From Escherichia coli (GTDB lineage: Bacteria > Pseudomonadota > Gammaproteobacteria > Enterobacterales > Enterobacteriaceae), in assembly GCF_001677475.2 (NCBI RefSeq), contig NZ_CP015229.1: a stretch of 64,000 bases of DNA; one strand, given 5' to 3'. Positions within the stretch are counted from its first letter, which is position 1; the number at the start of each line of letters is the position of its first letter. Under the pieces are notes generated by a model. The model did no database searches, was not told the DNA's origin, and was given only the letters and a program-made list of their open reading frames with translations. Shown in pieces: positions 7,050-34,811 of this stretch. A program made the translations under genes and the position numbers.

Positions 7050-7054
7050 AGTAT

Positions 7055-7320: not shown

Positions 7321-7472
7321 CCACTGTTTTTACACCGATAATTTTTCCCCCACCTTTTTGCGCTCATTCATATAAAAAATATATTTCCCCACGGAAACGA
7401 TTGCTTTTTATTTTCAGATGAATAGAATGCGGCGGATTTTTTGGGTTTCAAACAGCAAAAAGGGGGAATTTC

Positions 7473-7844
7473 GTGTCGCAAGATAACAACTTTAGCCAGG
7501 GGCCAGTCCCGCAGTCGGCGCGGAAAGGGGTATTGGCATTGACGTTCGTCATGCTGGGATTAACCTTCTTTTCCGCCAGTATGTGGACCGGCGGCACTCT
7601 CGGAACCGGTCTTAGCTATCATGATTTCTTCCTCGCAGTTCTCATCGGTAATCTTCTCCTCGGTATTTACACTTCATTTCTTGGTTACATTGGCGCAAAA
7701 ACCGGCCTGACCACTCATCTTCTTGCTCGCTTCTCGTTTGGTGTTAAAGGCTCATGGCTGCCTTCACTGCTGCTGGGCGGCACCCAGGTTGGCTGGTTTG
7801 GCGTTGGCGTGGCGATGTTTGCTATTCCGGTGGGCACCACATAG
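7473..7844 (+). pseudogene. codB: Cytosine permease CodB, 5' fragment (about 121 native codons) ending in 2 foreign codons and a stop created by the island junction
   Basis: Translation MSQDNNFSQGPVPQSARKG...VAMFAIPVG then TT*; the native continuation KATGLDIN... is found at 30919. Confidence 0.9.
7833..7836. other. Left island/chromosome junction (attL-like), GGCA shared with the right junction
   Basis: Native codB identity is lost after 7836; GGCA recurs at 30919-30922 where codB resumes. Confidence 0.6.
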
Positions 7845-7921
7845 GTCAATACCACCACAATAAAATTTTCCAATAAAAAAGCCCCATCACAAGGACAGGG
7901 CTATAGAATCAATTACTTACA

Positions 7922-8227
7922 TCACTTAATGTCTTTCATTCTACGAATACGCGCGCTTGCTTCGGATAGTTCTTCCAGTGTTACGTGATGTGCAAGCATA
8001 TAGACAGGAGTCGGATCGAATCCCTCGTGAGTATTGATCAGATGACTATTCCCGCCTTTAAACTCATCCTGTCCATCCCATATAGCGTACACGTCATCTT
8101 CTGCTACATAGATAATCAATCCAATAGGGGAGTCAGTAAGCTGGAAGATGCAGCCAGTAGAATCAATGCGATGTTCCCGAACGTCATCAACAGTTTCAAA
8201 GTCAATCTTAATATCTTTAGTCTTCAT
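7922..8227 (-). CDS. Hypothetical protein (101 aa), first gene inside the island's left end
   Basis: ORF only; no recognisable motif. Confidence 0.45.
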   Translation of the reverse strand: MKTKDIKIDFETVDDVREHRIDSTGCIFQLTDSPIGLIIYVAEDDVYAIWDGQDEFKGGNSHLINTHEGFDPTPVYMLAHHVTLEELSEASARIRRMKDIK

Positions 8228-8527
8228 GATTTGCCCTCGCGTGAAAAATATTTTCGATTATTTATAAAAAAAGACTTGACAAAATCAAAAGGTACTGTTC
8301 CACTGGTGAAATAAAGGGAGTTTTCGGCACCCCGGTTTTTGATGTGCGTGTGAGATTTCAAAACAGGTGCAGTGCAGCCCACCAGCGCGGTCGCTACGCG
8401 ACTATTAACACCCGCCAATCCCTTTCCCCGCCTCGATCTTTCATCTCGTTATAAATCGTTTTAGGCGCTCTCCTGAATGCGCAGATCAGATAAATAATTT
8501 TACGCAAATTTAAAGGAGGATAACCGG

Positions 8528-9079
8528 ATGAAAGAAGAATTAACCCTTACAGAAATTTCCCGCTTATACGGCTATACAATTAACGCCGCTAAGAAATGGC
8601 AAGAACGAGGAATGCCATTTAATACCAATACACGACGCGTACCAGCCAAAGAGGGGACCGAGTGGGTATTAAAAAATATCATCAACCCGCTTAAAGAAAC
8701 TACTGTCAAGGAACAAATCGACGTAGAGAAGTTACGCCGTGAGAGAGCATTAGCGGATGCAGCCGAACGAGAGAACCAGGAAGCAATGAATCTCCTGATT
8801 CCGGTCGGTTATGTAGAACAGGAACTAGCGGAATATTGCGGAAAGGTGAAACAGACTATTTTGCAGATCGCCACAATCGATGCTTTAGAAATTCTTGAAT
8901 CTGCCACTGACCAGAAAACATTGAAGAATAAGCTAAGGGAGATCATCGAGCGTCGTTTAAATGAAGTAGGGGACTTGTTCGAAAATGCGGATTTGGGAGA
9001 AGACGAGGAAGAAGAATTACCATTAATCGATGAACCGGAACAAGAACCAGAAGAAGACGATGAATTTGATGTGTCTTAA
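8528..9079 (+). CDS. Nu1-like small terminase / DNA-packaging HTH protein (183 aa) with acidic C-terminal tail
   Basis: N-terminus LTLTEISRLYGYTINAAKKWQERGMPF and EKLRRE segment resemble lambda Nu1 (QLADIFGASIRTIQNWQEQGMPV...EKLRRE); RBS AGGAGG upstream. Confidence 0.65.
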   Translation: MKEELTLTEISRLYGYTINAAKKWQERGMPFNTNTRRVPAKEGTEWVLKNIINPLKETTVKEQIDVEKLRRERALADAAERENQEAMNLLIPVGYVEQELAEYCGKVKQTILQIATIDALEILESATDQKTLKNKLREIIERRLNEVGDLFENADLGEDEEEELPLIDEPEQEPEEDDEFDVS

Positions 9080-9129
9080 AACGCGTTATAAATAAATGTA
9101 TGAAAGATGTTGAGCTGGTCAACGTCTAC

Positions 9130-9160
9130 GGGGGGAATCACCCCCCGCTAACCTTTTTCT
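9130..9160 (+). terminator. Rho-independent terminator after the Nu1-like gene
   Basis: GGGGGG-AATCA-CCCCCC hairpin followed by a T-rich tract. Confidence 0.55.
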
Positions 9161-9177
9161 TATTTGAGGATTTACCT

Positions 9178-9279
9178 ATGGTTGAATTTTTGATTTATCT
9201 GGCTGTAGGATTAACTATCGTATATTCACTGGCACATATTGGCATTTCTACTTTGTGTAACGCTTTCAAGTATCATTAA
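9178..9279 (+). CDS. Small hydrophobic peptide (33 aa, MVEFLIYLAVGLTIVYSLAHIGISTLCNAFKYH)
   Basis: Hand-translated short ORF below the ORF-track cutoff; single predicted TM helix; GGA-rich sequence upstream. Confidence 0.3.
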   Translation: MVEFLIYLAVGLTIVYSLAHIGISTLCNAFKYH

Positions 9280-9332
9280 TTAAATCGATGAATTGAACTA
9301 TAGATGATGGTCGTTTTCAAAGAGGATTATCT

Positions 9333-9506
9333 ATGGATCTTTTTGTCTATTTCGCTACTCTGCTGTTTTTGACTATCGTCGCTGGCATTAAATTGATTTT
9401 TATCTCGCTGGTGGTGTTTTTCAAATTTCTAATCGGTACGCCTTACGGCTGGGTATGCTTCTTCTTGTTTATTCTTTTTAGTTGCTGTAAATCAGACACT
9501 AAATAA
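9333..9506 (+). CDS. Small hydrophobic protein (57 aa, two predicted TM segments)
   Basis: Hand-translated ORF MDLFVYFATLLFLTIVAGIKLIFISLVVFFKFLIGTPYGWVCFFLFILFSCCKSDTK; RBS AGAGGA upstream. Confidence 0.35.
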   Translation: MDLFVYFATLLFLTIVAGIKLIFISLVVFFKFLIGTPYGWVCFFLFILFSCCKSDTK

Positions 9507-9801
9507 TATTGTAATCTGCCTTTCTCCTACATGGTTATTAACAGGGAATTTTCGAAAGAGAGTTCCCGATTAAAAGCCATAAAACACACTCCAGTACAGT
9601 GTTTTCATAGTCAGTGATCTATACATCATAAAAACATAACAAGTATAGATTGAGTGTTAATCCTCCCGCCCTTCGGGGCGGTTATTTTCTGGCTTTACTA
9701 GATAATGTAGCATCATGTTCATTATAAACCTCATCTTTGTTGTGCAAACCTAACCTTAACCTAAGTATAGGGAGTCTCTTAAATGGGACTCCCTTTTTTT
9801 A

Positions 9802-10044
9802 TTATGCAACCACTCGAAGTGTAGGTTTCTTATGTTGTGTAGGTTTATTGCCATTTCGCCACTCAGGAAACACCTGATCCATCATAACCGCGTTAGTTTC
9901 ATCAATCAGCTTTAGAGTCTTTCGTAATGCGGCGTTATCAGCTTTAAGCGATTTAATCTCTGAATCCATCTTAGCCATACGCTCTTTCATGTTGGTAATT
10001 TCTAACATCAGATTACCCAGAAATTCTTTGTTTTGATTAATCAT
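9802..10044 (-). CDS. Hypothetical coiled-coil protein (80 aa)
   Basis: ORF with heptad-like region MKERMAKMDSEIKSLKADNAALRKTLKL; last gene of a leftward 3-gene cluster. Confidence 0.45.
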   Translation of the reverse strand: MINQNKEFLGNLMLEITNMKERMAKMDSEIKSLKADNAALRKTLKLIDETNAVMMDQVFPEWRNGNKPTQHKKPTLRVVA

Positions 10045-10059
10045 AGAATTACCCCTCTA

Positions 10060-11046
10060 TTAAGCTGCGTATGCGTAGGCGCTGTAGTTGGTGTCGTAAA
10101 TCGCGTCATGTAATGCCATGTGTGCTTCGCGGATCTCGTCTTCGTTTACTTCAATCTCTTCTTGTTCTTCTTCGGTATCTTCCCAGCTAGTTTTGAATTT
10201 AGTCATAAAGTTGGTGCGCAGAGTTTCAAAGTTGGTAACTGGTGCGGATTCTGCTTCAACCGGAACCGGAACAACTACCGGATCAGCTTCTTGTTCTACT
10301 TCTTCACCGTTACCCCAGCGATAGTTAAGGAGTTCTTCATCAATGGATTTTTCTTCAACTGCTTTAACTTCAACCGCTGCTACTTCGAAAGTGGTTTCCT
10401 GTGCTGCCAGTTCAGCTTTCAGAGATGCGTTTTCAGCTTCCAGTTCAGCGATGCGTGCTTTCAGTGCTTCAACTTCGGAAGATTCAACCACTGCAACTTC
10501 TTCTTTAACTTCTTCAACTACTACCGGAGCAACTTCTTTCTGTGCTTCTTTTTTGCAGAAGAAGGAGGAAGTAACCTGTAATGCGTGGTTGTAGAAGGAA
10601 CCGCCTTTAGCGGTGTTAACAGTACCAGAAACATCTTTTACAGTGGATTCAGTAGCAACAGTACGGAAGCGTTTAGCAACTTCCTGGGTCTCTACGCCGT
10701 ATTCGTTGCGCTTGCTCTTGTGATGCATTACAGCACGGTAGCCGGAAGCAGTTTTAACAACAGCCAGATAGTAAGTTTCATCGGCTTTAACAGCACGAGC
10801 GAAGCAATAAACGGATTCACCTTCTACCAGTGTAGGTTTAACGTGACGTTTGTCGAAACGGTTAGTGATCTGCCATTCAGCACCGTCTTTGATGCCAGCA
10901 TTCTGACGCATTTCGGTCAGAGTCTTACCGGATACTACTTCAAAGGATTTGTCTTGTTTGCTTGCTTTACCTTCCATAACAGTAATGTTCAGTTTGCCGT
11001 TGGATTTAATAAACATGTTGAAGGTAATGCGCTTAGAATTTTTCAT
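10060..11046 (-). CDS. Hypothetical protein (328 aa): basic N-terminal domain, acidic coiled-coil C-terminal half
   Basis: ORF; C-terminal EVEALKARIAELEAENASLKAELAA and many E/D-rich stretches; no catalytic motif recognised. Confidence 0.5.
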   Translation of the reverse strand: MKNSKRITFNMFIKSNGKLNITVMEGKASKQDKSFEVVSGKTLTEMRQNAGIKDGAEWQITNRFDKRHVKPTLVEGESVYCFARAVKADETYYLAVVKTASGYRAVMHHKSKRNEYGVETQEVAKRFRTVATESTVKDVSGTVNTAKGGSFYNHALQVTSSFFCKKEAQKEVAPVVVEEVKEEVAVVESSEVEALKARIAELEAENASLKAELAAQETTFEVAAVEVKAVEEKSIDEELLNYRWGNGEEVEQEADPVVVPVPVEAESAPVTNFETLRTNFMTKFKTSWEDTEEEQEEIEVNEDEIREAHMALHDAIYDTNYSAYAYAA

Positions 11047-11163
11047 ATAAATACTCCTGAATACTCTGTGTTAGTTTTAATGTGTCATACTAAAAGCCTC
11101 CTTGCGCCAACAGGGAGGCTTTTTTATTTTTAAAGCCATCATATAATTCTCAGTGAAAGGTTA

Positions 11164-19538: not shown

Positions 19539-21539
19539 ATGCTTAAATTTCGCCGCGATCTTAACGGTTACGGTGGAGTTATTAACGAAGGGCATAACGA
19601 TCAATACGAATTTGAAATTGCTTTCTCCAGTGAACAGCCTTATCAGCGCCAATTCTGGGATGAGCAAAATCAAGAAATGGTGGTATTAGATGAAATTCTG
19701 GTACATACACCGGAAGCGGTTGATCTGTCTCGTCTGAATAATAACGCTCCGTTGCTGTTCAATCACAATTTCGATAATCACATTGGTGTCGTTTGTAACG
19801 CTCGAATCGATGCGGATAACGTAGGTCGTGCTCTGGTTAAATTCTCCAAGCATGGGACTTTGGCTAATGATATTCGTAACAAAGTCATCGAAGGTACGAT
19901 GGAAAAAATTTCTGTCGGCTATGACATTAAAGAGTATCACATCGACTACGCCAAATCGCAACTCATTGTTTCTAAATGGATTCCTCACGAGGTTTCATGG
20001 GTCACGGTACCCGCAGACGACACAGTGGGTCTGAATCGCTCTCTAAATACTATCACAGTTAATTTGGAGGCTAAACGCGATATGACTAAAGAACAAATCG
20101 AAGAAATCAAAAACGAAGAAGCCGCTCCGGTTGAAGAAACTCCGGTAGAAGAAAATAAAGAACCGGAAGTTGAAGAAACTCAAGAGCGCCAAGTTGAAGA
20201 GAATAAAGAAAATGAAAATCTCGAAGACGGAAAAGACGCTGAACATCCTGAAAGTGTTGATGATGATAGTTCAACTGTTCGGGAAGAAGAAATAAAAGAA
20301 GAACGTGAAGCTGCTCCGGTTGAAGAAGAAAAAATTGAAGAAGTGGCTGAACGTTCCGAAGAAGACGAATTAGAAATCCGCGAGATCGCGCGGGAACTAA
20401 ATATTGATGACTCTGAATTAGCACGTGCATTGTCGATTAAAGACATGACGCCGGAAGCATTCCGCACTAAGGCACTAAATAATCTCGTCAATGCTCAACG
20501 TAATAACGAACAACAAATTAAGGACTCTAAAATGGAAAAAACTTTTGACCTGAACAACGTAATTCGCTCTCTGGTAGATGGTGCTGCTCTGGGTGCTAAC
20601 GAAGCTGAATATTCCGCTATGGCTGCTACTGCAACTATGCAGCGTGGTCGTGCTGCTCGTGGTGGCTCCGTATTCGTTCCGGCTGCTGCTCTGCGTGCTG
20701 CTGCTGCTGGTAACACTAAAGCTACTCTGGAAGCTGTAACCGACGAAAAACTGCTGACTGAATCCTACATCGAAATGCTGATGCCTCAGAGTGTTTTAGG
20801 CCGCCTCGGTGTGACCGTTCTGTCTGGTCTGAATAGCCCGATCGCTGTTCCGAAAATGACTGCTTCCAGCGTTGACGCTTTCGGCTTCGTTGATGAAAAC
20901 GGTGCTGCACCGGAAAGCAAAGCTCAGTTTGAAAACGTGAAAATGGCTCCTAAGACTTTCGCAGGTGGCAACCCGATCAGCCGTCAGTCTCTGAAAACCG
21001 TTCCGGGTATCGCTACCCTGATCACTGATCACATTAACAAAGCTGTTCGCATCAAACTGGAACAACTGATTCTGTCTGATAAAGCTAACGACCGTGGTCC
21101 GGCTGGTCTGGTTAAGCAACTGGTAGACGCGGGTCGCGTTACTAAGAAAGCCGCTTTCTCTTACAAAGACTTCCTGAAAGAAATTGCAGCACTGACCGAC
21201 GCTGGCGTTCCTGCTCAGGCGATCAAGTTTGCGATGAGCGGTGCAACTGCTGCTGAACTGGAATCTACCCTGAAAGATAACGGCGTTTCCGGTTATATCA
21301 TCGAAAACGGCAAACTGGCTGGTTACGAAGTAGTTACTTCTGGTGTTATCCCGGCAGACCACATCGTTCTGGGCGCGTTCGACGGTATCACCATTGGTGA
21401 GTGGGGCGGTCTGGAACTGGATATGGACGACACTACCTACCGTGCACAGTCTGCAATCGTTCCGCGTATCTGGGTAGATCTGGATTACGTTGTAACCCAG
21501 CCGGAAGCTCTGAAAGTTCTCCAGATTGGCGGTGAATGA
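19539..21539 (+). CDS. Fused prohead serine protease, E/K-rich scaffold-like linker and HK97-fold major capsid protein (666 aa)
   Basis: N-terminal PLLFNHNFDNHIGVV...KISVGYD fits the caudovirus prohead protease signature; residues ~190-320 are E/K-rich; C-terminal ~340 aa resemble HK97-type capsid proteins. Confidence 0.75.
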   Translation: MLKFRRDLNGYGGVINEGHNDQYEFEIAFSSEQPYQRQFWDEQNQEMVVLDEILVHTPEAVDLSRLNNNAPLLFNHNFDNHIGVVCNARIDADNVGRALVKFSKHGTLANDIRNKVIEGTMEKISVGYDIKEYHIDYAKSQLIVSKWIPHEVSWVTVPADDTVGLNRSLNTITVNLEAKRDMTKEQIEEIKNEEAAPVEETPVEENKEPEVEETQERQVEENKENENLEDGKDAEHPESVDDDSSTVREEEIKEEREAAPVEEEKIEEVAERSEEDELEIREIARELNIDDSELARALSIKDMTPEAFRTKALNNLVNAQRNNEQQIKDSKMEKTFDLNNVIRSLVDGAALGANEAEYSAMAATATMQRGRAARGGSVFVPAAALRAAAAGNTKATLEAVTDEKLLTESYIEMLMPQSVLGRLGVTVLSGLNSPIAVPKMTASSVDAFGFVDENGAAPESKAQFENVKMAPKTFAGGNPISRQSLKTVPGIATLITDHINKAVRIKLEQLILSDKANDRGPAGLVKQLVDAGRVTKKAAFSYKDFLKEIAALTDAGVPAQAIKFAMSGATAAELESTLKDNGVSGYIIENGKLAGYEVVTSGVIPADHIVLGAFDGITIGEWGGLELDMDDTTYRAQSAIVPRIWVDLDYVVTQPEALKVLQIGGE

Positions 21540-21730
21540 ACTCCTGTAGAACCATCTGAACCTTCCCCCGATTTGGGGGAAGAAAATCTGATTCCTGAAC
21601 CGGAAGAAGAATCCCAGACGGTTAAGGCGAAAGCCACAGTTAAAAAACAACGTAAAACTAAAGAATAATAATTAGCCCTGCCTAACGGTGGGGCTTTTTT
21701 GTATGTAAATACTCCATAAAGGGGGTAACT

Positions 21731-22021
21731 ATGTTCAAATTATCAGAATCACAATTATCAAGAATGTTTAAGAGTGCTCCTGTATTTGTGGTGGAAGGTG
21801 GTAAATCAATTCGTGCTTATCATGAAATTACTACTACCGACGAATCAGGGGTAATGACAGAAACAGAATTTCTATTCTGTCGTGAGGGAGACTTAAAGCA
21901 AGGTGATATTGTCACAGTAGAAAACCAGCGTTTCAAAGTTCAATATATTAAGCGCAATGGTGACAATACAACTGATTGCTTTATTACTCTGGCAGGGGGT
22001 ACACATGCTCGCTACCGTTAA
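21731..22021 (+). CDS. Putative head-tail joining / head-completion protein (96 aa)
   Basis: Size and position after the capsid gene; RBS AAAGGGGG. Confidence 0.4.
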   Translation: MFKLSESQLSRMFKSAPVFVVEGGKSIRAYHEITTTDESGVMTETEFLFCREGDLKQGDIVTVENQRFKVQYIKRNGDNTTDCFITLAGGTHARYR

Positions 22022-22427
22022 TAATATGCCGAGACTGAAAATCAAACGCGCCTTGCAAGATATTATCGAACAAGATTTAGGTCTGGCTTTAAACGTAGAA
22101 CAAACTCAGCAAGGCTTTAGCGATGACGTGGTTTGTTGGATTACTGGCATGAATGAAACTTATACGCGTGTTCGTGGTGGTAATGCAATGCAAGCTGAAT
22201 GTGTTATCGAAATGCAGTTATATTCTCAGATTCATGAAACGAAAATTCATGAGGGTATTTGCGAGATAATCCAGATTCAGCCGGATAACCCACGATTTAA
22301 AGATTTGGGCTTCTCAATTTCAGATATCACTCCAGTAGCTTCTAATACCGATTATGACGATGATTCTAGTGATGGGGGTATCGTTGGGACACTTAGCCTT
22401 AAATTTTCTTATCTAGCGCGTTTTTAA
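22002..22427 (+). CDS. Putative head-tail connector/adaptor protein (about 141 aa; ORF track offers an upstream ATG at 21957)
   Basis: Overlaps the end of the previous gene (translational coupling); RBS GGGGGT before the 22002 ATG. Confidence 0.4.
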   Translation, partial: HMLATVNNMPRLKIKRALQDIIEQDLGLALNVEQTQQGFSDDVVCWITGMNETYTRVRGGNAMQAECVIEMQLYSQIHETKIHEGICEIIQIQPDNPRFKDLGFSISDITPVASNTDYDDDSSDGGIVGTLSLKFSYLARF

Positions 22428-22436
22428 GGGGTAATA

Positions 22437-23270
22437 ATGAATATTACACAAGATAACTTAGACATTTTCACGGGGTCGCATGTTGAAGTCTCCTTGTCTA
22501 CTATGGTGGATAACCAGCCGGACTTTTTCGATCCTGCATTTAGTCCTATCGAGAACATCGCAGCATTCCCGACGATAACCGAATCCACAGAGATCCAGAC
22601 GTTAGAAGAATATGACCATGATGTTACTGGTAAGTTGGCTGGCTATCGTAAACTTGAATCAACTACGTTAGTAGTAAACCGTGTTCTGGATGATGAACAT
22701 CAAGACATGTTGATGAAAGCGGTGAATGATAAAACTCCTTTACGCTTTCGTATGTTCTATGTTGTGAACTCTGGTTACAGTGCTGCTAACACAGGTTACT
22801 ACGTCATCTTTGACGCTTTCGTCTCGTCACATAAAACAAAATCCGGCGATAACAAAGTTACTACAATCGAGTTTAAATTAGAACCTGATGGCGGGATTCT
22901 GGATCGCGGTATTGCTACCGAAGGCCGGATCTTACGTCAAGGTGATTTTGGTCTGGGTGCTGGTGTAAATCCATTCACGGGTCCGATTGATAGCGAAGCA
23001 TTAGCCGGAAACCGTTTCGTAACCTATCAGGGATCGAGCGCATCTAACCCATTTAGTGCTGATACTTCACTAATTCACGTTCAACCTAATGAAGATGGAG
23101 GATGGCAATTAACTTGCACCGCCTCCGGCGCACCACGTTTACGAGTTCGCACAGTCCAGAAAGATGGTAATTCTGGATGGGTGAAAGTGTATTCCACAGA
23201 AGAAAAACCGACACCAGCCGAGATTGAAGCCGTTTCTATCCATGACAGGATCGATTTCGGGGAATACTGA
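22437..23270 (+). CDS. Putative virion structural protein (277 aa), neck/tail-proximal; function unclear
   Basis: ORF with RBS between connector genes and tail fibre; G/S/T-rich C-terminal half. Confidence 0.4.
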   Translation: MNITQDNLDIFTGSHVEVSLSTMVDNQPDFFDPAFSPIENIAAFPTITESTEIQTLEEYDHDVTGKLAGYRKLESTTLVVNRVLDDEHQDMLMKAVNDKTPLRFRMFYVVNSGYSAANTGYYVIFDAFVSSHKTKSGDNKVTTIEFKLEPDGGILDRGIATEGRILRQGDFGLGAGVNPFTGPIDSEALAGNRFVTYQGSSASNPFSADTSLIHVQPNEDGGWQLTCTASGAPRLRVRTVQKDGNSGWVKVYSTEEKPTPAEIEAVSIHDRIDFGEY

Positions 23271-23346
23271 TTGCTTCTCTAAATAAAAACATGACGCGGG
23301 GAGGTTAACGCCTCCCTTATTCCTGTTTTTATAGTGAGGTGATTAG

Positions 23347-26271
23347 ATGCAATCAATCCAATTTAAACGAACTAGTGTTTCTGGCAAAAAACCTACGCCG
23401 GAACAATTACAGGTCGGTGAGGTAGCAATCAACCTTAAAGACCATGTTATTTTCACCAAAGACCGAGATAATGCCGTAGTTCAAATCTCTGTTTCTCCTG
23501 AAACTCACACTGCATTAGAAACTAAAGTTAATGCGAATAAGAAAGAATTAGACGGCAAGATTACTACAAATCACAACAATATTAACGCTAAAGTAGATGA
23601 AATTAAACAAACTACTGATGCAACTATCGCAGCAAATCACGCAGAAATTAACAATAAAGTTGATGTGATTAAGCGCGAAACCGATGCGACAATCACGGCT
23701 AATAAAAATAAAGCTGCTTCCGACCTTGCTGGCGTTAAAGCTGAATTGTCCGATACCATCACCGCTAATAAAAATGCGGCTGCTGTAGCAACTCAGGAAC
23801 TGGACACCCGCATCAATAAAAAAGTTGATGATAACAAAGCTAAAACTGATGCAACTATCGCCAGCAATCACAAAGCAATCAATGACAAAGTTGATTTGAT
23901 TAAGGCCGAGACTGACCGCACTATCGCAGCAAATAAAACATATGCTGATACTCAGCTAACTAATGCTACTAATGATCTGAATACTGTCATTGCTGCAAAT
24001 AAAAAAGAAGCTGCTGATAGCGTGGCTGCATTAACTAAGACTGTAAACACTAAAGATACAGCGATTCATAGAAAAGTTGACGAGAATAAAGCACTGACCG
24101 ACGCGGAATTATCCCGTTTGTCTGGACGACTTGAAGATGTTGCTAGTATTGGTCAAAACCGAGGCGAATTGCCAGTAGATGCTAATCTTGATCACTATGG
24201 TCCACGTTCAGAATTTGCTGGTATTTGGGGTAAATCGACTTCAACGAATGCACAACCAAGTCACAATTTCCCAGAAGAAAATGCTGTAGGTGTTCTGGAA
24301 GTTTTCACAGGCGGTCAATTCTCTGGGACTCAGCGTTATACAACACGCTACGGTAATATCTACATTCGTTCTCTTACCGCTACATGGAATGGTACTGATG
24401 GTCCGTGGTCGCCGTGGCGCAATATTCAGATGGGTACACGTCCGCTTTCGTCAACCATCGATCTTAATGATTTGGGTGGAGTTGAGCATTTTGGTTTATG
24501 GCGCAATAGCTCTAACTCAATTGCGGCTCTAGAAAGGAATTTCCCAGAAGCTGGGGCGATGGCACAAGGTCTTTTAGAAGTCTTTGAGGGTGGCAACTAC
24601 TCCCGCACTCAGCGTTATACGACCAGAATGGGCGTTGTATATGTTCGCTGTCTTGCTGCTGCATGGGATGCTAGTGCTCCTAAATGGGGTCCGTGGCAAC
24701 AAGTAGGTAATGTAACACCGTCTACTTTCTATGACGGAAACCTGAACAACTTCAAAACACCTGGTTTATATAACATTTTAGGCACTGACAAAGTTACTAA
24801 CCGTCCTGTTGCAGAAGGTGTTCCGGTTGAGATGACCGCATTGCTTGAGGTTAAACAGCGTGCTTCCGGTGGCGCTATTTTCCAACGTTTCACTACCGCA
24901 GGAACGGGAACTACTACCCGTGGTCGTGTTTTTGAACGTGCAATGACAAATAATATCTGGGGAGATTGGCACGAAGTACATACATCATATTCTATGCCAA
25001 TTACTTTAGGTATCGGTGGGATTAAAACACAATTAGAATCTTTAGATTGGCAAACTTTTGATTTTGTTCCTGGTAGCATGTTTAGCGTGCCATTGAATAA
25101 AATTACCAATATGCCAGCAAAAATGGATTGGGGAACAATTGACGGAAACCTGATCATGTTTTCCGTTGGTCCTAGTGAACACACTAGCACAGGGCGTACT
25201 GTTCAGGTTTGGCGTGGTACTGTGTCTCAAGCAAACTACCGTTATTTTGTTGTTCGTGTATTTGGTAATTCAGGAGAGAGAACTTGCACCGTTCGCCGTG
25301 TTGCTCTTGAGGATGGTCGCCATACATGGACAGCACAACAAGATTTTAACGGCGCGGTTAACTTCGGTGGGTCTGTTGTTAACTTTAAAACAGCCACTAA
25401 CTTTAATAACACTACCAGTTTTAAAACAGAAGCTAAATTTCTTTCATCTAATGCATTCCGTATGTATGGCGGTAATTTTGGTGCATTCTTGCGTAATGAT
25501 GGTGAAAGTGTTTATCTTCTTTCCACCAATGAAAATGATAAAGATGGAAACTATAATACAAATAGACCTTTCCGGTATCAGTTAAAAACTGGTGATGTTA
25601 CTTTGGGTGGAACTAGCGGTGCTGATATTTTAAGATTAAAAAGTAGTTCTCTTGCTGCTACCTTTGGCGGTGATGTTAATTTAAGTAAAGGCGTATTGAC
25701 GTTTGAAGCTGGCGGTAAGCAATCTCGCGATTATTTCCGGTTTAATCATTGGGGTGATAGCAATAAAGCTCGCGATAACATCATTCAGTTAGAAGATAGT
25801 AAAGGTGCTCATTTTTCCACTGAACGCACACTGGCAACGGGTGCAATCAAAACTAAGTTCTTTGGTGAAGTTGAATCCGATGGTCGATTAACTATTAAAC
25901 GTCCGGGTGATGCTATTGTATTATCGACTACAGCTAGCAACTCGTTGCATATTCGTGGTGATGTTGGTGGAAGCAATAACTGGTATATTGGTAAAGGTGG
26001 TGCTGATAATTCACTAGCATTTTATAGCTACGCAACTAAAGCGGGTATACACATCACAAATAATGGTGAGATATCATTTGCCCCGCAAAATTTTGCTGGT
26101 ATTAACATTAACAAAGACCGTATCTATATCAATGCTACACAATGGATTGCTAATCATTCCGGTTCATGGGATGGACAGTGGAGAGAAGAAGCACCCATCT
26201 TTATTGATCAGGGTAGTGTTGGACAAGATAGCTATTATCCTCTTATTAAAGGACATAGCCAGATCACAGGT
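23347..26271 (+). CDS. Tail fibre protein (974 codons), 3' end interrupted by an IS3-family element
   Basis: Repeated KVDxIKxxTDATIxANxxxIN helical repeats; C-terminal GSNNWYIGKGGADN resembles T7 gp17 tip motif NNWYIGRGSDN; stop codon TGA is the first 3 bases of the IS. Confidence 0.75.
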
Positions 26272-26328
26272 TGAATCGCCACGGGTTTAACAGACACCTC
26301 AGAGTCATTTAAGATGGCTTAAAGAGAG

Positions 26329-26613
26329 GTGCCCATGAGCGGTAAGCGTTATCCCGAAGAGTTTAAAATTGAAGCAGTCAAACAGGTTGTTGATCGCGGT
26401 TATTCTGTTGCCAGCGTTGCAACACGTCTCGATATCACCACCCACAGCCTTTACGCCTGGATAAAGAAGTACGGTCCGGATTCTTCCGCTAATAAAGAAC
26501 AGTCAGATGCTCAGGCCGAGATCCGCCGTCTCCAGAAAGAGCTGAAGCGGGTTACCGACGAACGGGACATATTAAAAAAAGCCGCGGCGTACTTCGCAAA
26601 GCTGTCCGACTGA
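26329..26613 (+). CDS. IS3-family transposase OrfA (HTH, leucine-zipper region)
   Basis: 94 aa ORF MSGKRYPEEFKIEAVKQVV...; ends shortly after the A7 slippery site. Confidence 0.85.
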   Translation: MPMSGKRYPEEFKIEAVKQVVDRGYSVASVATRLDITTHSLYAWIKKYGPDSSANKEQSDAQAEIRRLQKELKRVTDERDILKKAAAYFAKLSD

Positions 26614-27482
26614 GGTACGCCTTTATCCGTGACAACACCTGTTGCTGGCCTGTTCGCCTGCTCTGTCGGGTGCTGGATGTTCATCCCAGTGGTTTTTACG
26701 CCTGGCTTCAGCAGCCGCATTCACAACGCCATCAGGCAGACCTGAGGCTGACAGGGCAGATTAAACAGTTCTGGCTGGAATCGGGATGCGTCTATGGTTA
26801 TCGCAAAATCCATCTGGATCTGCGGGACAGCGGGCAACAGTGCGGAGTGAACAGAGTCTGGCGACTGATGAAACGTGTCGGGATAAAGGCTCAGGTCGGA
26901 TACCGGAGCCCGCGGGCACGTAAAGGCGAGGCCAGTATCGTGTCGCCCAACAGGCTCCAGCGACAGTTCAATCCGGATGCTCCGGATAAGCGTTGGGTAA
27001 CGGACATAACCTACATCAGGACCCACGAAGGCTGGCTGTATCTTGCCGTGGTTGTTGATCTGTTCTCACGCAAAATTATCGGCTGGTCCATGCAATCCCG
27101 GATGACAAAGGACATTGTCCTGAACGCACTGCTGATGGCTGTATGGCGCCGTAATCCCCAAAAACAGGTGCTGGTTCATTCGGATCAGGGCAGTCAGTAC
27201 ACAAGCCATGAGTGGCAGTCGTTCCTGAAATCACACGGCCTGGAGGGCAGCATGAGCCGTCGCGGTAACTGCCATGATAATGCGGTTGCAGAAAGCTTTT
27301 TCCAGTTGTTGAAACGCGAACGGATAAAGAAAAAGATCTACGGAACGCGGGAAGAAGCCCGCAGCGATATTTTTGATTACATCGAAATGTTTTATAACAG
27401 TAAGCGTCGGCATGGTTCCAGCGATCAGATGTCACCGACAGAATATGAAAACCAGTATTATCAACGGCTCGGAAGTGTCTAG
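26575..27482 (+). CDS. IS3-family transposase OrfB (integrase catalytic DDE domain), expressed as OrfAB by -1 frameshift; ORF-track ATG at 26670
   Basis: -1 frame relative to orfA, open from the slippery site; motifs WVTDITYIRT, VVDLFSRKIIGW, HSDQGSQYTS, NAVAESFF. Confidence 0.85.
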
Positions 27483-27548
27483 ATTATCCGTGGCGATTCA
27501 GACAAATTTATTAAATTTGGAATCACTACCCGAAAACCAGAAGAACGA

Positions 27549-27938
27549 ATGAGAGAGCAAACCAGAAAGAGCAACTTCACTCACCGATTAATCTTTACTC
27601 ATGAGTTTGAGGATGGTTGGAAAGCTGCCGATTTAGAGCATGAAGTAAAACAACGCTTCAAGACTCATGCCGCACCCTACAAAGATTTCAAGGATGGATG
27701 GTCGGAAACTCTGACTATCGATGAGTTGCCACACTTACAGCAACTGGTTTATGACTACCTAACCAATCAACCGGACGAGGCTAATATGTGGGTATCCCCG
27801 AAAGATGTATTTGATGACGATACATTCAAGCTACATACTCACTTCTACGGCATCAATAAACCGGAATTTTTCTGTATTGATGACGATAGTCCTGATTTAA
27901 TGGATGAATACTTTAATTCTCTCTTAGACGCTGCCTAA
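27549..27938 (+). CDS. Hypothetical protein (129 aa from first ATG; open frame extends upstream to the IS end at 27501), probably 5'-truncated; possible GIY-YIG/T5orf172-like domain
   Basis: Frame is open from 27501 (DKFIKFGITTRKPEERMREQ...); KFGITT...R...E pattern recalls the second motif of GIY-YIG/T5orf172 domains; weak, from memory only. Confidence 0.35.
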   Translation: MREQTRKSNFTHRLIFTHEFEDGWKAADLEHEVKQRFKTHAAPYKDFKDGWSETLTIDELPHLQQLVYDYLTNQPDEANMWVSPKDVFDDDTFKLHTHFYGINKPEFFCIDDDSPDLMDEYFNSLLDAA

Positions 27939-27950
27939 CGCAATTAAATT

Positions 27951-27973
27951 AAAAAGGGGTACATCTGTACCCC
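27951..27973 (-). terminator. Hairpin terminator downstream of the recombinase gene
   Basis: GGGGTAC-ATCT-GTACCCC stem-loop preceded on the plus strand by AAAAA (T-tract on the minus strand). Confidence 0.5.
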
Positions 27974-28011
27974 TTAAAGCGTTTATCTCGTTATACGTCG
28001 ATTTAGGCCGC

Positions 28012-29709
28012 TTAAATTCCAAATTCCTGCAACAATCCCGGTTGTTCTTCTTCTGGTTTCCAGTTCTTATCTGTCAGCATTTCTAAACATGGATGCAGAA
28101 CAAGCCCGTTGCTCTCCAGAATCTGCCTATCATTGATAGTCTTCACGTCTACAAAAATTCTCCCTTTCCGGTTACGGCGTGACCTCTCGATCACTATCCT
28201 TTGCGTCTTCCCGTCGATGTACTCCATCACAAAATGATTATAATTGGTATCAATCTTGTAACATTTTATAGACTTAACAGCTTCTTTAATCTTCAATCGA
28301 ACTTTTAACCGTTCCTCGCTGCAAACATCCTCTAAATCAAATTGTGCGAGCTTCTCCCAGCCTTGAGAATCAACTGAATACATGTTCTCTTCTATTACCT
28401 TAATCTGGTTATAGATGGCCTCACGCTCATGATTCAGGGTAGTAATCTGGTCGGCTAACTCCTTCGTTGCTCCTGTCATTGCAGAAAGACTAATCAGGTT
28501 ATCAATCTTGCGTGAAATGTCTTCAATCTGGGCTTGCATTCCTGGGATCGGATTGGCCTTATCCTCAGCAATCCAGATTTTATCCGCCAGCAATTGCAAT
28601 ACAGCCTTATCCAGTTGATCACCACGAAAGCCCCAATTTGGATGATCACAATTGGTCCTCCTGCTATCTGCGCCATCGCACATATAACGATATTGGGCTA
28701 ATCTCTCTTTTGATGCTCCGCTTCTCTTAACCATACTTGCCCCACAATGACCACATCTAAGCAAACCAGCACCACTTAACAGGGTAATAACAGGACTAGA
28801 CTTAGTAGGATAAGAAAACGACCTCAGTCCTATAGTCTTCTTGAGTTGATAGAACTCGGCATCTTCCATCACTCGCGGGTAATAATCCTTTAACTCATAT
28901 GTCACACCTTCAATGGTTATCTCTTTGATACCAAGTAAAGCGCGGTTAGAGAACATCCTGGCTAACATAGAACGCGCCCATTTCTTAGGGGTATCTTTGT
29001 TCGTTGTGTAATTAGGCGGGGCGATTCTTTCATTCAGATAATCAAGAACCCGACCATTAGAATAACCATTCTGTTTTAATTCAACGATTTTCTTGATAAC
29101 AGGAAAATACACCGGATGTGGAAGCACATAACCCGATGAAGTATCAGCCCACCATATATTGCGACCAACTTCCTCGATTGCCACTGCCGGATTTTGTGGA
29201 TTCTCCTGATGGGCTTTAACCTTGAGTAGTGCGCTTGAGTTAGTGCGATTGCGTTTAGTCTGACTTTCCTCATTTGCACGAGCAAACAACATTACACTCA
29301 ACAGTAAATCGATGGGATTAGCATTAACCGATTCTTTGCTATATACCTTCCCATCCATACCAGTAACAATTGTTATTCCCCTGCGGATGATCGAAAGGAA
29401 TAGCTCTTGAGCTTCAATAACAGATTGACGGGAGATACGGTCTAAGTTTTCCACCACCAGCCAGCTACCAACCGGAACGGATCGACCAATTTCATCCAGA
29501 AAACGAGATAATGCACCTGTTTTACTGTTAGCCCCTTTGAATGCAGATACACCGAAATCCTGATAGGAAGTAACTAGCTCAAGATCATATTTTGCGGCTA
29601 TCTCTTTCGCTGTTCTCTTCTGGCGTTCAAATGAGCTACCATCGGCTTGCTTCATGGAAGAGAAGCGAATATACGAATACAGTTTAGTTTTCATACCATT
29701 TCCAAACAA
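28012..29709 (-). CDS. Large serine recombinase (integrase), 565 aa
   Basis: N-terminal resolvase-type catalytic domain (YSYIRFSSMKQ with candidate nucleophile Ser, VVENLDRISRQ), recombinase domain, Cys-rich zinc ribbon CGHCG...C...C, C-terminal coiled-coil. Confidence 0.88.
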   Translation of the reverse strand: MFGNGMKTKLYSYIRFSSMKQADGSSFERQKRTAKEIAAKYDLELVTSYQDFGVSAFKGANSKTGALSRFLDEIGRSVPVGSWLVVENLDRISRQSVIEAQELFLSIIRRGITIVTGMDGKVYSKESVNANPIDLLLSVMLFARANEESQTKRNRTNSSALLKVKAHQENPQNPAVAIEEVGRNIWWADTSSGYVLPHPVYFPVIKKIVELKQNGYSNGRVLDYLNERIAPPNYTTNKDTPKKWARSMLARMFSNRALLGIKEITIEGVTYELKDYYPRVMEDAEFYQLKKTIGLRSFSYPTKSSPVITLLSGAGLLRCGHCGASMVKRSGASKERLAQYRYMCDGADSRRTNCDHPNWGFRGDQLDKAVLQLLADKIWIAEDKANPIPGMQAQIEDISRKIDNLISLSAMTGATKELADQITTLNHEREAIYNQIKVIEENMYSVDSQGWEKLAQFDLEDVCSEERLKVRLKIKEAVKSIKCYKIDTNYNHFVMEYIDGKTQRIVIERSRRNRKGRIFVDVKTINDRQILESNGLVLHPCLEMLTDKNWKPEEEQPGLLQEFGI

Positions 29710-29757
29710 AAACGCCCCTACCGTGTATTATAACGATAGGGGCTAGGTGATTAAAGA

Positions 29758-30171
29758 TTAAAGAATTTCACGGCAGCTAATCAGGGTATAAGATGTATCA
29801 CCTTTTTTAACATCAAATATAGGAGCGCCATCTACAGAATGCAGATATTTGATGTAGGATTTACCATCTTCGGAACCATAATATTCTTCTTTCTCGTTCT
29901 TATCTTCTTTCAGTTTCGGGCTTTTGATTGTTCTATCAAATACCGGATCGTTGAAAGCAAATTGACTATTATCATCATTCACGCGAACTTTCACACCGAT
30001 AAAGCCACGGTATTTTCCAGACGGTGCATGATAATAACGGTCGCCATCACTCAGGTAGCGTGTATCATCTCCTTTATGTTCGAAGTAGGAATTACACACA
30101 TAATAGGTATTAGCATTAGCAGTACCAACCAAACCCATAGCAAGAACGATACCAGCGATAATCTTTTTCAT
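29758..30171 (-). CDS. Exported protein (137 aa) with N-terminal signal peptide
   Basis: MKKIIAGIVLAMGLVGTANA signal-like N-terminus; two Cys residues; no other motif. Confidence 0.5.
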   Translation of the reverse strand: MKKIIAGIVLAMGLVGTANANTYYVCNSYFEHKGDDTRYLSDGDRYYHAPSGKYRGFIGVKVRVNDDNSQFAFNDPVFDRTIKSPKLKEDKNEKEEYYGSEDGKSYIKYLHSVDGAPIFDVKKGDTSYTLISCREIL

Positions 30172-30216
30172 AGTAGAATTTCCTCTTGTTATTTGAATTA
30201 CGATATATTTATATCG

Positions 30217-30342
30217 TTAAAAGTTGATGCTGATTACCAGACCAAACACAACCGCACCAATCAAATCAATCCAGTTAATACACAATCCGCTATATTCTTT
30301 CTTGAATGTCTTAGATGAAATGCCATCATGAAATTGTTTCAT
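30217..30342 (-). CDS. Small membrane peptide (41 aa, MKQFHDGISSKTFKKEYSGLCINWIDLIGAVVFGLVISINF)
   Basis: Hand-translated; RBS GGGGTGA; C-terminal hydrophobic helix. Confidence 0.35.
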   Translation of the reverse strand: MKQFHDGISSKTFKKEYSGLCINWIDLIGAVVFGLVISINF

Positions 30343-30345
30343 TGC

Positions 30346-30426
30346 TCACCCCATACTAACGACAAGATAAGAAAGGCTGATCATAGTTGTGAGACTACCT
30401 CCCACGAATGAGATAAAAGCTAACAT
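30346..30426 (-). CDS. Small hydrophobic peptide (26 aa, MLAFISFVGGSLTTMISLSYLVVSMG)
   Basis: Hand-translated; RBS GGAGA 8 nt upstream; immediately precedes the 41-aa peptide. Confidence 0.3.
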   Translation of the reverse strand: MLAFISFVGGSLTTMISLSYLVVSMG

Positions 30427-30483
30427 GTTTGATTCTCCAGTTTAAAAAGCGGTGGGAATTGCACCCACCAAATTAGAAATTAA

Positions 30484-30891
30484 TTAAGCGCGAACGATGG
30501 TCAGAGTATCCAGCAAACCTTTTTCGTATAATTCGAAACACGTTTTATATTGCTCAATCTTCCAACCGTAGCGGGTGATCTTATTCAGTAGAACAATCGC
30601 GCTACTTTCATCCAGATATTGCCCCTGCTTACCGATTACATAAGTCTCACGATTCAGCTTTAACTTACGGAAACCTTTAACACCTAATTCCTTAGCCACC
30701 GCTTTAATCTCTTTAATCTCACCTTCTGCGGCTACATATTCAGCGTCGATAATCTCAGGTGATGATCTCAGTGCTACCAGAACTAAGGCCATTGCTTCTT
30801 CTTCGGTACGAGCAACACCAGCTTTCTCGAAAGTCATCTCACCAAATTTACGAATCATGATATTGAACATTGTCTGTATTCCTGCGTTCAA
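30484..30891 (-). CDS. Hypothetical protein (135 aa; alternative start at MFNIMIRK), last gene before the right junction
   Basis: ORF only; start faces the right island boundary. Confidence 0.45.
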   Translation of the reverse strand: MNAGIQTMFNIMIRKFGEMTFEKAGVARTEEEAMALVLVALRSSPEIIDAEYVAAEGEIKEIKAVAKELGVKGFRKLKLNRETYVIGKQGQYLDESSAIVLLNKITRYGWKIEQYKTCFELYEKGLLDTLTIVRA

Positions 30892-30912
30892 ACTTAATGT
30901 GGTTGGAATGAT

Positions 30913-31818
30913 ATGTTAGGCAAGGCAACCGGGCTGGATATTAATATGCTGATTGCAGTCTCCGGTTTACTGATGACCGTCACCGTCTTCTTTGGCATTT
31001 CGGCGCTGACGGTTCTTTCGGTGATTGCGGTTCCGGCTATCGCCTGCCTGGGCGGTTATTCCGTGTGGCTGGCCGTTAACGGCATGGGCGGCCTGGACGC
31101 ATTAAAAGCGGTCGTTCCCGCACAACCGTTAGATTTCAATGTCGCGCTGGCGCTGGTTGTGGGGTCATTTATCAGTGCGGGCACGCTCACCGCTGACTTT
31201 GTCCGGTTTGGTCGTAATGCCAAACTGGCGGTGCTGGTGGCGATGGTGGCCTTTTTCCTCGGCAACTCGTTGATGTTTATTTTCGGTGCAGCGGGCGCGG
31301 CGGCACTGGGGATGGCGGATATCTCTGATGTGATGATTGCTCAGGGTCTGCTGCTGCCTGCGATTGTGGTGCTGGGGCTGAATATCTGGACCACCAACGA
31401 TAACGCACTCTATGCGTCGGGTTTAGGTTTCGCCAACATTACCGGTATGTCGAGTAAAACCCTTTCGGTGATTAACGGTATTATCGGTACGGTCTGCGCA
31501 CTATGGCTGTATAACAATTTTGTCGGCTGGCTGACCTTCCTTTCGGCAGCTATTCCTCCGGTAGGGGGCGTGATCATCGCTGACTATCTGATGAACCGTC
31601 GCCGCTATGAGCACTTTGCGACCACGCGTATGATGAGTGTCAATTGGGTGGCGATTCTGGCGGTCGCCTTGGGGATTGCCGCAGGCCACTGGTTACCGGG
31701 TATTGTTCCGGTCAACGCGGTATTAGGTGGCGCGCTGAGCTATCTGATCCTTAACCCGATTTTGAATCGTAAAACGACAGCAGCAATGACGCATGTGGAG
31801 GCTAACAGTGTCGAATAA
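30913..31818 (+). pseudogene. codB: Cytosine permease CodB, 3' fragment (fortuitous ATG at 30913 created by the junction)
   Basis: Translation (ML)GKATGLDINMLIAVSGLLMTVTVFFG... matches the CodB C-terminal two thirds. Confidence 0.9.
30919..30922. other. Right island/chromosome junction (attR-like), GGCA
   Basis: Native codB reading resumes at 30919 (GKATGLDIN...); imperfect inverted symmetry between the inner island ends (ACCACCACAAT at left vs reverse-complement CCAACCACATT at right). Confidence 0.6.
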
Positions 31819-33091
31819 CGCTTTACAAACAATTATTAACGCCCGGTTACCAGGCAAAGAGGGGCTGTGGCAGATTCATCTGCTGGACGGAAAAATCAGC
31901 GCCATTGATGCGCAATCCGGCGTGATGCCCGTAACTGAAAACAGCCTGGATGCCGAACAAGGTTTAGTTATACCGCCGTTTGTGGAGCCGCATATTCACC
32001 TGGACACCACGCAAACCGCCGGACAACCGAACTGGAATCAGTCCGGCACGCTGTTTGAAGGCATTGAACGCTGGGCCGAGCGCAAAGCGTTATTAACCCA
32101 TGACGATGTGAAACAACGCGCATGGCAAACGCTGAAATGGCAGATTGCCAACGGCATTCAGCATGTACGTACCCATGTCGATGTTTCGGATGCAACGCTG
32201 ACCGCGCTGAAAGCAATGCTGGAAGTGAAGCAGGAAGTCGCGCCGTGGATTGATCTGCAAATCGTCGCCTTCCCGCAGGAAGGGATTTTGTCGTATCCCA
32301 ACGGTGAAGCGTTGCTGGAAGAGGCGTTACGCTTAGGGGCAGACGTAGTGGGGGCGATTCCGCATTTTGAATTTACCCGCGAATACGGCGTGGAGTCGCT
32401 ACATAAAACCTTCGCCCTGGCGCAAAAATACGACCGTCTCATCGACGTTCACTGTGATGAGATCGATGACGAGCAGTCGCGCTTTGTCGAAACCGTTGCT
32501 GCCCTGGCGCACCGTGAAGGAATGGGCGCGCGAGTCACCGCCAGCCACACCACGGCAATGCACTCCTATAACGGGGCGTATACCTCACGCTTGTTCCGTT
32601 TGCTGAAAATGTCCGGTATTAACTTTGTCGCCAACCCGCTGGTCAATATTCATCTGCAAGGACGTTTCGATACCTATCCAAAACGTCGCGGCATCACGCG
32701 CGTTAAAGAGATGCTGGAGTCCGGCATTAACGTCTGCTTTGGTCACGATGATGTCTTCGATCCGTGGTATCCGCTGGGAACGGCGAATATGCTGCAAGTG
32801 CTGCATATGGGGCTGCATGTTTGTCAGCTGATGGGCTACGGGCAAATTAACGATGGCCTGAATTTAATCACCCACCACAGTGCCAGAACGTTGAATTTGC
32901 AGGATTACGGCATTGCCGCCGGAAACAGCGCCAACCTGATTATCCTGCCTGCAGAAAATGGGTTTGATGCGCTGCGCCGTCAGGTTCCTGTACGTTATTC
33001 GGTACGTGGCGGTAAGGTGATTGCCAGCACACAACCGGCACAAACCACCGTATATCTGGATCAGCCAGAAGCCATCGATTACAAACGGTAA
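31808..33091 (+). CDS. codA: Cytosine deaminase (GTG start; ORF track offers ATG at 31793)
   Basis: [16 protein letters not shown]..., metal-dependent amidohydrolase HxH motif PHIHLD; overlaps codB end. Confidence 0.95.
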
Positions 33092-34799: not shown

Positions 34800-34811
34800 C
34801 CTTATTTTTAA

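Follow-up and report, generated by a model that had tools for sequence, protein, structure and literature searches.

Large serine recombinases integrate DNA in a reaction that requires no host factor and makes no duplication of the target, and the attachment (att) sites are read by their recombinase and zinc-ribbon domains. Excision by these enzymes requires a directionality factor, and they drive known switches at comK of Listeria and at spsM and sigK of Bacillus. Here we analyze a stretch of 64,000 nucleotides of Escherichia coli DNA (assembly GCF_001677475.2, contig NZ_CP015229.1; hereafter, the window), in which codB is split by an island of phage DNA that encodes such a recombinase. The island is very probably a defective prophage, namely, the remainder of a temperate phage that integrated in codB by means of its serine integrase and then decayed in association with an insertion sequence (IS). 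The finding is real, and the lineage is recurrent though little studied, the insertion being already present in public assemblies.

Phage DNA interrupts codB at a four-base overlap

Alignment of the window with the prpE-codB-codA locus of E. coli K-12 places the interruption of codB at 7836/30919. Positions 7148-7834 match the region upstream of codB together with the 5' part of the gene, and positions 30919-33087 match its 3' part and codA. The codB frame, which starts at 7473, reads ...AIPVG through Gly121 (7833-7835) and continues as ACC ACA TAG, that is, two foreign codons and a stop. GGCA is present at both junctions (7833-7836 and 30919-30922), and the inserted DNA amounts to 23,086 bp if this tetranucleotide is counted once. 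These 4 bp are the entire att overlap at codB, and a target duplication is absent. On the right side, an open reading frame (ORF) from ATG 30913 runs in frame into CodB Gly121-Lys122, and joining attL with attR at the overlap rebuilds codons 121-122 of codB in frame. The observed junction pattern is not due to chance. The features on which the argument depends are as follows:

7473..7844, plus strand: codB 5' fragment, comprising 121 native codons, two phage-derived codons and a stop
7833..7836: attL overlap GGCA, expected to hold the crossover dinucleotide
28012..29694, minus strand: large serine recombinase (integrase) of 560 aa, intact, identified with Pfam
30919..30922: attR overlap GGCA
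30919..31818, plus strand: codB 3' fragment, with an in-frame phage-supplied ATG at 30913

The inner ends of the island form an imperfect inverted repeat, and the G+C content is 0.40-0.47 within the island against 0.52-0.57 outside it. A preliminary description of this DNA, made from the letters and their reading frames, had reported a codB split by AT-richer DNA with GGCA at both junctions and had called for an alignment with an intact codB locus; that alignment, with breakpoints at 7836/30919, agrees with its coordinates to the base. A tRNA scan detected no tRNA in the window, for which reason a tRNA-targeting island was rejected, and an Rfam scan of the window returned no families inside the island.

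The distal codB fragment and codA are probably silenced, because the operon promoter now lies 23 kb away; the loss of codBA expression is something that we infer from this arrangement rather than observe directly. The phage right end (30913-30918) supplies ATG-TTA ahead of codB codon 121, giving an ORF of 301 aa, which gene callers take for a piece of a transporter. Upstream of ATG 30913, no promoter-like site was seen. The insertion accounts for a null genotype of codB, and probably of codA, in this lineage, from which changed 5-fluorocytosine and cytosine phenotypes could be predicted.

Integrase, att sites and crossover

The integrase gene is located 1.2 kb from the right end of the island, on the attR side. 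In the preliminary description it appeared as a 565-aa recombinase at 28012-29709; the ORF is real, and its likely start is ATG 29694, yielding the 560 aa called in every relative. Pfam recognizes Resolvase (residues 6-154, E = 3e-15), Recombinase (PF07508, residues 198-288) and Zn_ribbon_recom (PF13408, residues 309-369) domains, and the YIRFSS serine motif is retained in all five aligned integrases.

To characterize the att sites, attL, attR and attB were derived for codB and for two further targets of the related prophages described below, hicB and ycdX. In the attP reconstructed for the window, centring on the CA of GGCA gives inverted symmetry at 15 of 24 positions, compared with at most 10 of 24 for all other centres in the 120-nt attP stretch, in keeping with the symmetry of the inner ends already pointed out in the preliminary description. 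The attP sites of the hicB and ycdX prophages are nearly identical to each other (…ATGATATTAGG[C/G]AACCCGAA[T/C]GTAGTCAACCC…), their best dyad centre being AA (16/24); at ycdX, AA is the sole possible 2-bp overlap. The codB attP (…ATGATATGTTAGGCACCACATAGGTCAATACC…) is homologous to these sites but rearranged, with the dyad centred on CA. The attB sites in hicB and ycdX are also alike (TTGGCAAACCTAAACAGG and CCGGAAATCCCAAATATG).

Enzymes of this family are expected to exchange strands at a defined crossover of 2 bp, the central dinucleotide being non-palindromic. By dyad symmetry, CA is the favoured candidate for the crossover dinucleotide at codB; we infer its exact position from sites and alleles rather than from the reaction itself. 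The third base of the overlap is either C or T in the intact codB alleles of hosts, and the same two bases are found in attR of lysogens. AA, the centre in the other two prophage types, was excluded as the crossover of the window type by this comparison of lineages and hosts. Immediately to the right of the overlap the codB lineages vary, with GGGCACCACATAGG in the window, GGGCACCCCCATAGG in two near-identical sisters (L047 and L050) and GGGTAACCCCACAGG in E. coli 39EVA. These sisters differ from the window at seven positions in 5.5 kb; two of the differences fall within 4 nt to the right of the attL overlap (CACCACATAGG vs CACCCCCATAGG), and those at window positions 7836-7839 include a 1-nt length change in the phage arm.

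Overall, codB-type integrases are 72-77% identical to those located in hicB and ycdX. The hicB-type integrase of L3Cip3 is 95-97% identical to the codB type over residues 1-160, which correspond to the catalytic domain, but only 35-67% identical over residues 200-360, which comprise the recombinase and zinc-ribbon domains. The integrase is a mosaic in this respect, a pattern which suggests that its DNA-binding domains have been exchanged or diversified. The small-terminase-like protein of the window has identical copies in prophages at codB and at ycdX, and its 39EVA variant is found in prophages at codB, hicB and ycdX. Since identical small-terminase-like proteins occur at different sites, the comparison points to the integrase-att module as the determinant of the target. 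The sequence-level hallmarks of the large serine recombinase family are all present, the mapping of the crossover excepted, and catalysis is predicted from them. Taken together, the overlap, the dyad-symmetric attP, the position of the integrase gene beside attR and the recurrence of the junction agree with the view, put forward in the preliminary description, that a large serine recombinase placed phage DNA in codB.

Relatives occupy three intragenic sites

The island is a decayed member of an unnamed family of Escherichia siphovirus-like prophages. The terminase-portal region is present in 54 of 5,426 complete E. coli genomes. Flanks were checked in seven complete genomes, and the family was found to integrate at three intragenic sites: five of the seven prophages lie inside hicB, that of 14EC007 lies inside ycdX and that of E. 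coli 39EVA inside codB. Loci L006, L014 and L015 represent hicB, and L016/L021 represent ycdX. Insertion in hicB cuts the C-terminal end off the antitoxin gene.

The relatives examined are full prophages which share the gene order of the window and continue with genes for tail tube, chaperones, tape measure, hub and J-like tail tip and with small lysis-region genes, followed by an M15 peptidase gene, variable cargo and the recombinase gene. In 39EVA, a full prophage of 35.8 kb occupies the same position in codB; it has the tail tube, tape measure, tail tip and M15 peptidase, and its integrase is 97% identical to that of the window.

Among the 5,426 complete genomes, the codB junction is seen in 39EVA alone, but the same insertion is found more widely in drafts and metagenomes. 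The exact integrase of the window is encoded on 22 contigs, and its 90% identity cluster includes 44 sequences from E. coli and E. fergusonii. An identical attR junction, TGTGGTTGGAATGATATGTTAGG(C/T)AAGGCAACC followed by codB-codA, was observed at 18 of 18 draft or metagenome loci representing four protein variants. For attL, 39EVA and three draft loci share the codB position of the window, with small differences just inside the phage arm. These comparisons show codB to be a genuine and repeatedly used attachment site, and the identical junctions across loci speak against an artefact of assembly. About 20 assemblies contain the truncated form. In IMG/VR, the only members found are a 22.3-kb provirus, which shows 100% identity to the window across the 7.9 kb compared, IS included, and one further relative, with an integrase 78% identical. 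The preliminary description had not recognized such an element as described; we likewise found no paper, but the same codB insertion turns out to exist in public genomes and as this IMG/VR provirus.

The attL-spanning pattern gave no match in IMG/VR or in JGI metagenomes, and none of the GTDB species representatives encodes a close integrase; among the latter, the 26-nt codB attB string has a single match, in one metagenome-assembled genome.

A probable IS-associated deletion of the tail and lysis modules

The window retains the head module but has no tail tube, tape measure, hub, tail tip, peptidase or holin region, all of which relatives possess, so that the element lacks the combination of head, tail and lysis modules expected of a complete prophage. 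The gap coincides with an IS, and the genes on both of its sides are truncated:

23347..26274, plus strand: tail-fibre gene, truncated at codon 975
26272..27501, plus strand: IS3-family insertion sequence, 1,230 bp
27549..27938, plus strand: C-terminal 129-aa remnant of a 391-aa GIY-YIG/CapR-like nuclease gene

The IS has perfect terminal inverted repeats of 13 bp (TGAATCGCCACGG) and ORFs at 26329-26613 and 26670-27482; HTH_Tnp_1 and rve were matched by Pfam in the same IS element of L017. These features agree with the IS3 family, for which one expects terminal inverted repeats beginning with TG and two overlapping ORFs, the second with a DDE (rve) domain. Copies 99.8-100% identical are present in many E. 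coli genomes, where they are annotated as IS3 family transposase. A simple insertion of an IS3-family element is expected to leave a target-site duplication of 3-4 bp, but the flanks here are GGT and GAC, and the duplication is absent. Its absence would fit either a deletion next to the IS or a recombination event involving two copies of the IS. The IS lies 18 kb from attL and 3.4 kb from attR.

On the left of the IS, the fibre ORF terminates at a stop codon that the IS contributes with its first bases, and the fibre gene lacks the sequence for about 265 C-terminal residues: the homologous gp37 of Krischvirus runs for approximately 795 nt past the end of similarity to the window fibre. On the right, the 129-aa ORF matches only the last part of its endonuclease family, and the 391-aa gene is intact in sister prophages. 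Two sister assemblies, L007 (100%) and L008 (99.99%), match the window from 27501 rightwards over 12.2 kb; leftwards, they carry the intact nuclease gene followed by genes for a UvsW-like helicase, the M15 peptidase and the tail tip. Further assemblies are interrupted at this IS or slightly within it. Because the sisters match up to the IS and then carry the missing genes intact, the window copy is best interpreted as a recent deletion derivative. We estimate from these comparisons that it has lost about 13-16 kb, made up of the distal fibre, every other tail gene, the lysis genes and some of the cargo. The preliminary description had remarked neither on the truncation of the fibre by the IS, nor on the missing tail and lysis module, nor on the presence of the insertion in other public genomes. 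What it treated as a distinctive type of 23-kb island is better viewed as a temperate phage of about 35-38 kb minus its tail and lysis genes.

The cargo concerned is a cassette located between the lysis genes and the integrase gene in the full-length codB prophages (L007, L008, L025, L027-L032). It encodes a nuclease of the GIY-YIG/CapR-like type (391 aa), a protein of 185-189 aa and a DEAD-box helicase resembling UvsW (496 aa), and could be an anti-phage defence or a replication module. Assembly GCA_016118575.1 is an example of a sister strain in which the prophage is intact.

The 3' two thirds of the fibre gene are 80-82% identical at the nucleotide level to T4-like gp37. The distal 2.1 kb (24163-26271) are 78-82% identical to gp37 of the virulent Krischvirus and Tequatrovirus, and the relative 14EC007 encodes a gp38-like adhesin; these matches are evidence that temperate and virulent phages have recently exchanged fibres.

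Proposed history and alternative explanations

According to the history that we favour, a temperate siphovirus-like phage of approximately 35-38 kb would have integrated into codB. Its integrase would recombine an attP of about 50 bp with dyad symmetry, situated where the integrase end of the phage genome adjoins the small-terminase end, with an attB in codB codons 121-122, strand exchange taking place at a dinucleotide within the common GGCA. Integration would split codB and probably silence its distal part along with codA. Later, an IS3-family element and a deletion would have cost the prophage the 3' end of the fibre gene, all tail genes, the lysis genes and some of the accessory nuclease/helicase cassette, which add up to about 13-16 kb. 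Left over would be the integrase with its two att sites, the early region and the module for head packaging, a remnant presumably unable to make infectious particles alone.

Several observations weigh against this history or blur its details. The codB lineages differ by a 1-nt indel and substitutions just to the right of the core, and the polymorphisms of hosts and lysogens give an ambiguous outcome, GG and (C/T)A both being compatible with the lineage comparison as possible crossovers. The exact attP string is absent from IMG/VR. Among isolated phages in INPHARED, identity does not exceed 45% for the capsid and 32% for the integrase. The size of the deletion derives from 39EVA and sister loci and not from one contiguous sister sequence. 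Finally, integrase activity and plaque formation are putative for this family, and no recombination directionality factor was identified.

The absence of tail genes raises the question of whether the element might be natively tail-less, i.e. a capsid-forming satellite of the cf-PICI kind which provides its own packaging and capsid proteins and borrows tails from helper phages. Its small size (23 kb) would fit such a satellite, as would the retention of the small and large terminase, portal, capsid, head-tail joining and integrase genes in the absence of the tail tube and lysis genes; furthermore, the truncated form recurs in about 20 assemblies and is listed as a provirus in IMG/VR. Yet gene boundaries, which should be intact in a native satellite, are broken at both flanks of the IS, where no target duplication is seen, and the missing genes are found in sisters whose sequence shows 100% identity as far as the IS. 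In addition, all other family members examined have a full tail and lysis module, and the assemblies with the truncated form are nearly identical to each other, as if clonal rather than transferred. We therefore regard a native satellite as very unlikely. Quite unlikely, too, is the variant in which the truncated element would be a snapshot of the birth of a capsid-forming satellite, a prophage newly deprived of its tail and lysis genes that retains the integrase, both att sites and a complete packaging and capsid module, mobilisable by helpers and with codB reversibly restored; if it were true, full-length relatives or other helper phages would supply tails and lysis.

Restoration of codB is also central to the idea of active lysogeny, in which excision by the integrase would restore the gene when cytosine is needed and the element would be kept for that purpose. 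Excision at the 4-bp overlap would indeed yield an intact in-frame codB, the integrase and both att sites are intact in an otherwise dead phage, and all three targets of the family (codB, hicB and ycdX) are intragenic. Nevertheless, we consider this unlikely: codB is dispensable, excision is a prediction from sequence with no directionality factor identified, and, because the deletion looks very recent given the 100% identical sisters, an intact integrase needs no selection. There is a negligible chance that the junctions were produced by assembly chimerism, transposition or homologous recombination, for which one might invoke the IS inside the island and the REP repeats just upstream of codB. 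The IS is far from both junctions, and there are no transposon ends or long repeats, only the 4-bp overlap within a dyad site. Moreover, the same attR recurs in one complete genome and, independently, at 18 draft or metagenome loci, and 39EVA and three draft loci have attL at this position of codB as well. The preliminary description had allowed for a chimeric assembly should the junctions fail to hold; their recurrence in 39EVA and the 18 loci effectively refutes chimerism, transposition and homologous recombination alike. A defective prophage integrated by a serine integrase and truncated in association with an IS thus remains the preferred interpretation.

Other genes of the island and host context

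Gene identities were assigned from PHROGs and Pfam matches. The packaging, capsid, tail-fibre and IS genes mentioned in the preliminary description are all present, namely, terminase, portal, protease-capsid fusion, fibre and IS. For most early and accessory ORFs, NCBIfam and PHROGs provided no function. In addition to the features above, the island contains:

7922..8227, minus strand: accessory ORF of 101 aa adjoining attL, without a family match; relatives integrated in hicB and ycdX have it too
8528..9079, plus strand: small-terminase-like protein (phrog_57)
9802..11046, minus strand: two coiled-coil ORFs (80 aa and 328 aa), function not assigned, conserved in relatives
11164..11346, minus strand: 60-aa ORF, conserved in relatives
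11820..11997, plus strand: array of at least six iteron-like AAACCTACAC(T) repeats with 22-57 nt spacing
12630..13100, plus strand: 156-aa acidic ORF, function not assigned
13463..14305, plus strand: Rha/Ant-like regulator (PF09669)
14546..15408, minus strand: two early ORFs (~79-85 aa and 200 aa), function not assigned
15497..17404, plus strand: large terminase of the lambda gpA type (GpA_ATPase and GpA_nuclease)
17477..17971, plus strand: head-tail joining protein (phrog_5774)
17982..19493, plus strand: portal protein (Phage_portal_2)
19539..21539, plus strand: S78 prohead protease-HK97-type major capsid protein fusion
21731..23270, plus strand: three head-completion/tail-proximal genes (96 aa, ~140 aa and 277 aa)
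29758..30171, minus strand: ORF of 137 aa, hydrophobic at its N-terminus (accessory gene of secreted or lipoprotein-like type)
30484..30870, minus strand: 128-aa ORF (phrog_14908, function not assigned) beside attR

The 277-aa protein has a weak match to a major tail protein (phrog_158). The iteron-like array, which is possibly an origin, an operator or a packaging site, lies within a 1.3-kb ORF-poor stretch (11347-12629). This stretch is mosaic and partly conserved in the hicB relatives, and a 35-nt direct repeat occurs in it at 11532 and 11605. Neither a replication initiator nor a repressor was recognized anywhere in the phage early region.

Outside the island, the backbone at 1-7400 and 31000-64000 (prp, codA, cyn, lac, mhp, frm, tau and hemB) is syntenic with E. 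coli. For 31000-43000 and 52000-64000, the best match among the 5,426 complete E. coli genomes is 97.4-97.6%, and the left flank is 96-97% identical to K-12 and 39EVA, the two genomes compared. These values place the host in a lineage without a representative among the complete genomes of RefSeq, which may be a cryptic clade of Escherichia. REP-type repeats (Rfam naRNA4) were found at 7147-7223, 7241-7317 and 50328-50403, all outside the island. The two tandem copies between prpE and codB are ordinary intergenic repeats unrelated to the insertion.

Cultured phages and the literature

A megablast search against 50,697 phage records for a close cultured phage produced only matches to T4-like fibres. 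The best capsid match in INPHARED, at 45%, is to the record of DCP80, an uncharacterised 141-kb Escherichia phage, and the next capsids, at about 30%, are those of Vibrio VP882, Halomonas phiHAP-1 and the Rhodobacter RcCronus group. The best integrases of isolated phages, also about 30% identical, are YbcK-like recombinases of lambdoid phages and that of Bcep22. A PDB sequence search with the integrase returned a single weak match, to a catalytic domain. The search of phage databases that the preliminary description had proposed thus yielded no close isolated phage.

In the open-access literature, we found no paper on this prophage family and no description of a serine-integrase attachment site in codB, hicB or ycdX. 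Mentions of hicB in the LF82 prophage paper refer to a phage-borne toxin-antitoxin pair and not to an integration site, and neither the att strings nor the integrase N-terminus occur in the text supplements of the study on large serine recombinase discovery (PMC10083194). The site in codB joins the intragenic phage attachment sites known in Escherichia. Since no phage of this family is in culture, it would be worth isolating an inducible full-length one, for instance that of 39EVA.

Comparison with known systems

Distant likenesses concern individual modules. The S78 protease-capsid fusion of the window resembles those of VP882, phiHAP-1 and the RcCronus group, although these phages are distant and differ in lifestyle modules and hosts. 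Similarly, the fibre is like those resulting from the exchange of T4 gp37-type fibres with temperate phages (lambda Stf and similar), except that its receptor-binding end is deleted. The retention of packaging and capsid genes without tail genes recalls cf-PICIs; in the window, by contrast, the tail-less state appears to be secondary, having arisen by IS-associated deletion, and the element is a cut-down phage of 35-38 kb, not a compact satellite.

With respect to integration, the integrase shares the resolvase-recombinase-zinc ribbon layout and the long C-terminal region of the integrases of phiC31, Bxb1, TP901-1, A118/LI and SPbeta (SprA). As in systems of the phiC31/Bxb1 type, the att sites are short, with an imperfect dyad, few common bases and no duplication, and the integrase gene lies beside attP. 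The splitting of a host gene by a serine-recombinase element is likewise shared with phi10403S/A118 in comK, SPbeta in spsM and skin in sigK, and precise excision would restore the gene in each case. Unlike those switches, codB is a dispensable transporter gene and the element has decayed. The integrase of the window is about 25-32% identical to those of isolated phages, and its activity is predicted from sequence.

The closest systems are the prophages in hicB and ycdX (O55:H7 DEC5A, FDAARGOS_946 and 14EC007). They have the same gene order as the window, 80-96% nucleotide identity across most of the retained 22 kb, and the same integrase type and attP scaffold. The differences concern the DNA-binding domains of the integrases (35-67% identical), the attP arms and the target gene; moreover, the window copy lacks the tail and lysis module and has the T4 gp37-like variant of the fibre. 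Related integrases with near-identical catalytic domains and diverged recombinase and zinc-ribbon domains thus appear to reach hicB, ycdX and codB through homologous attP scaffolds, a natural series that could inform how target specificity changes in large serine recombinases, which serve as genome-engineering tools.

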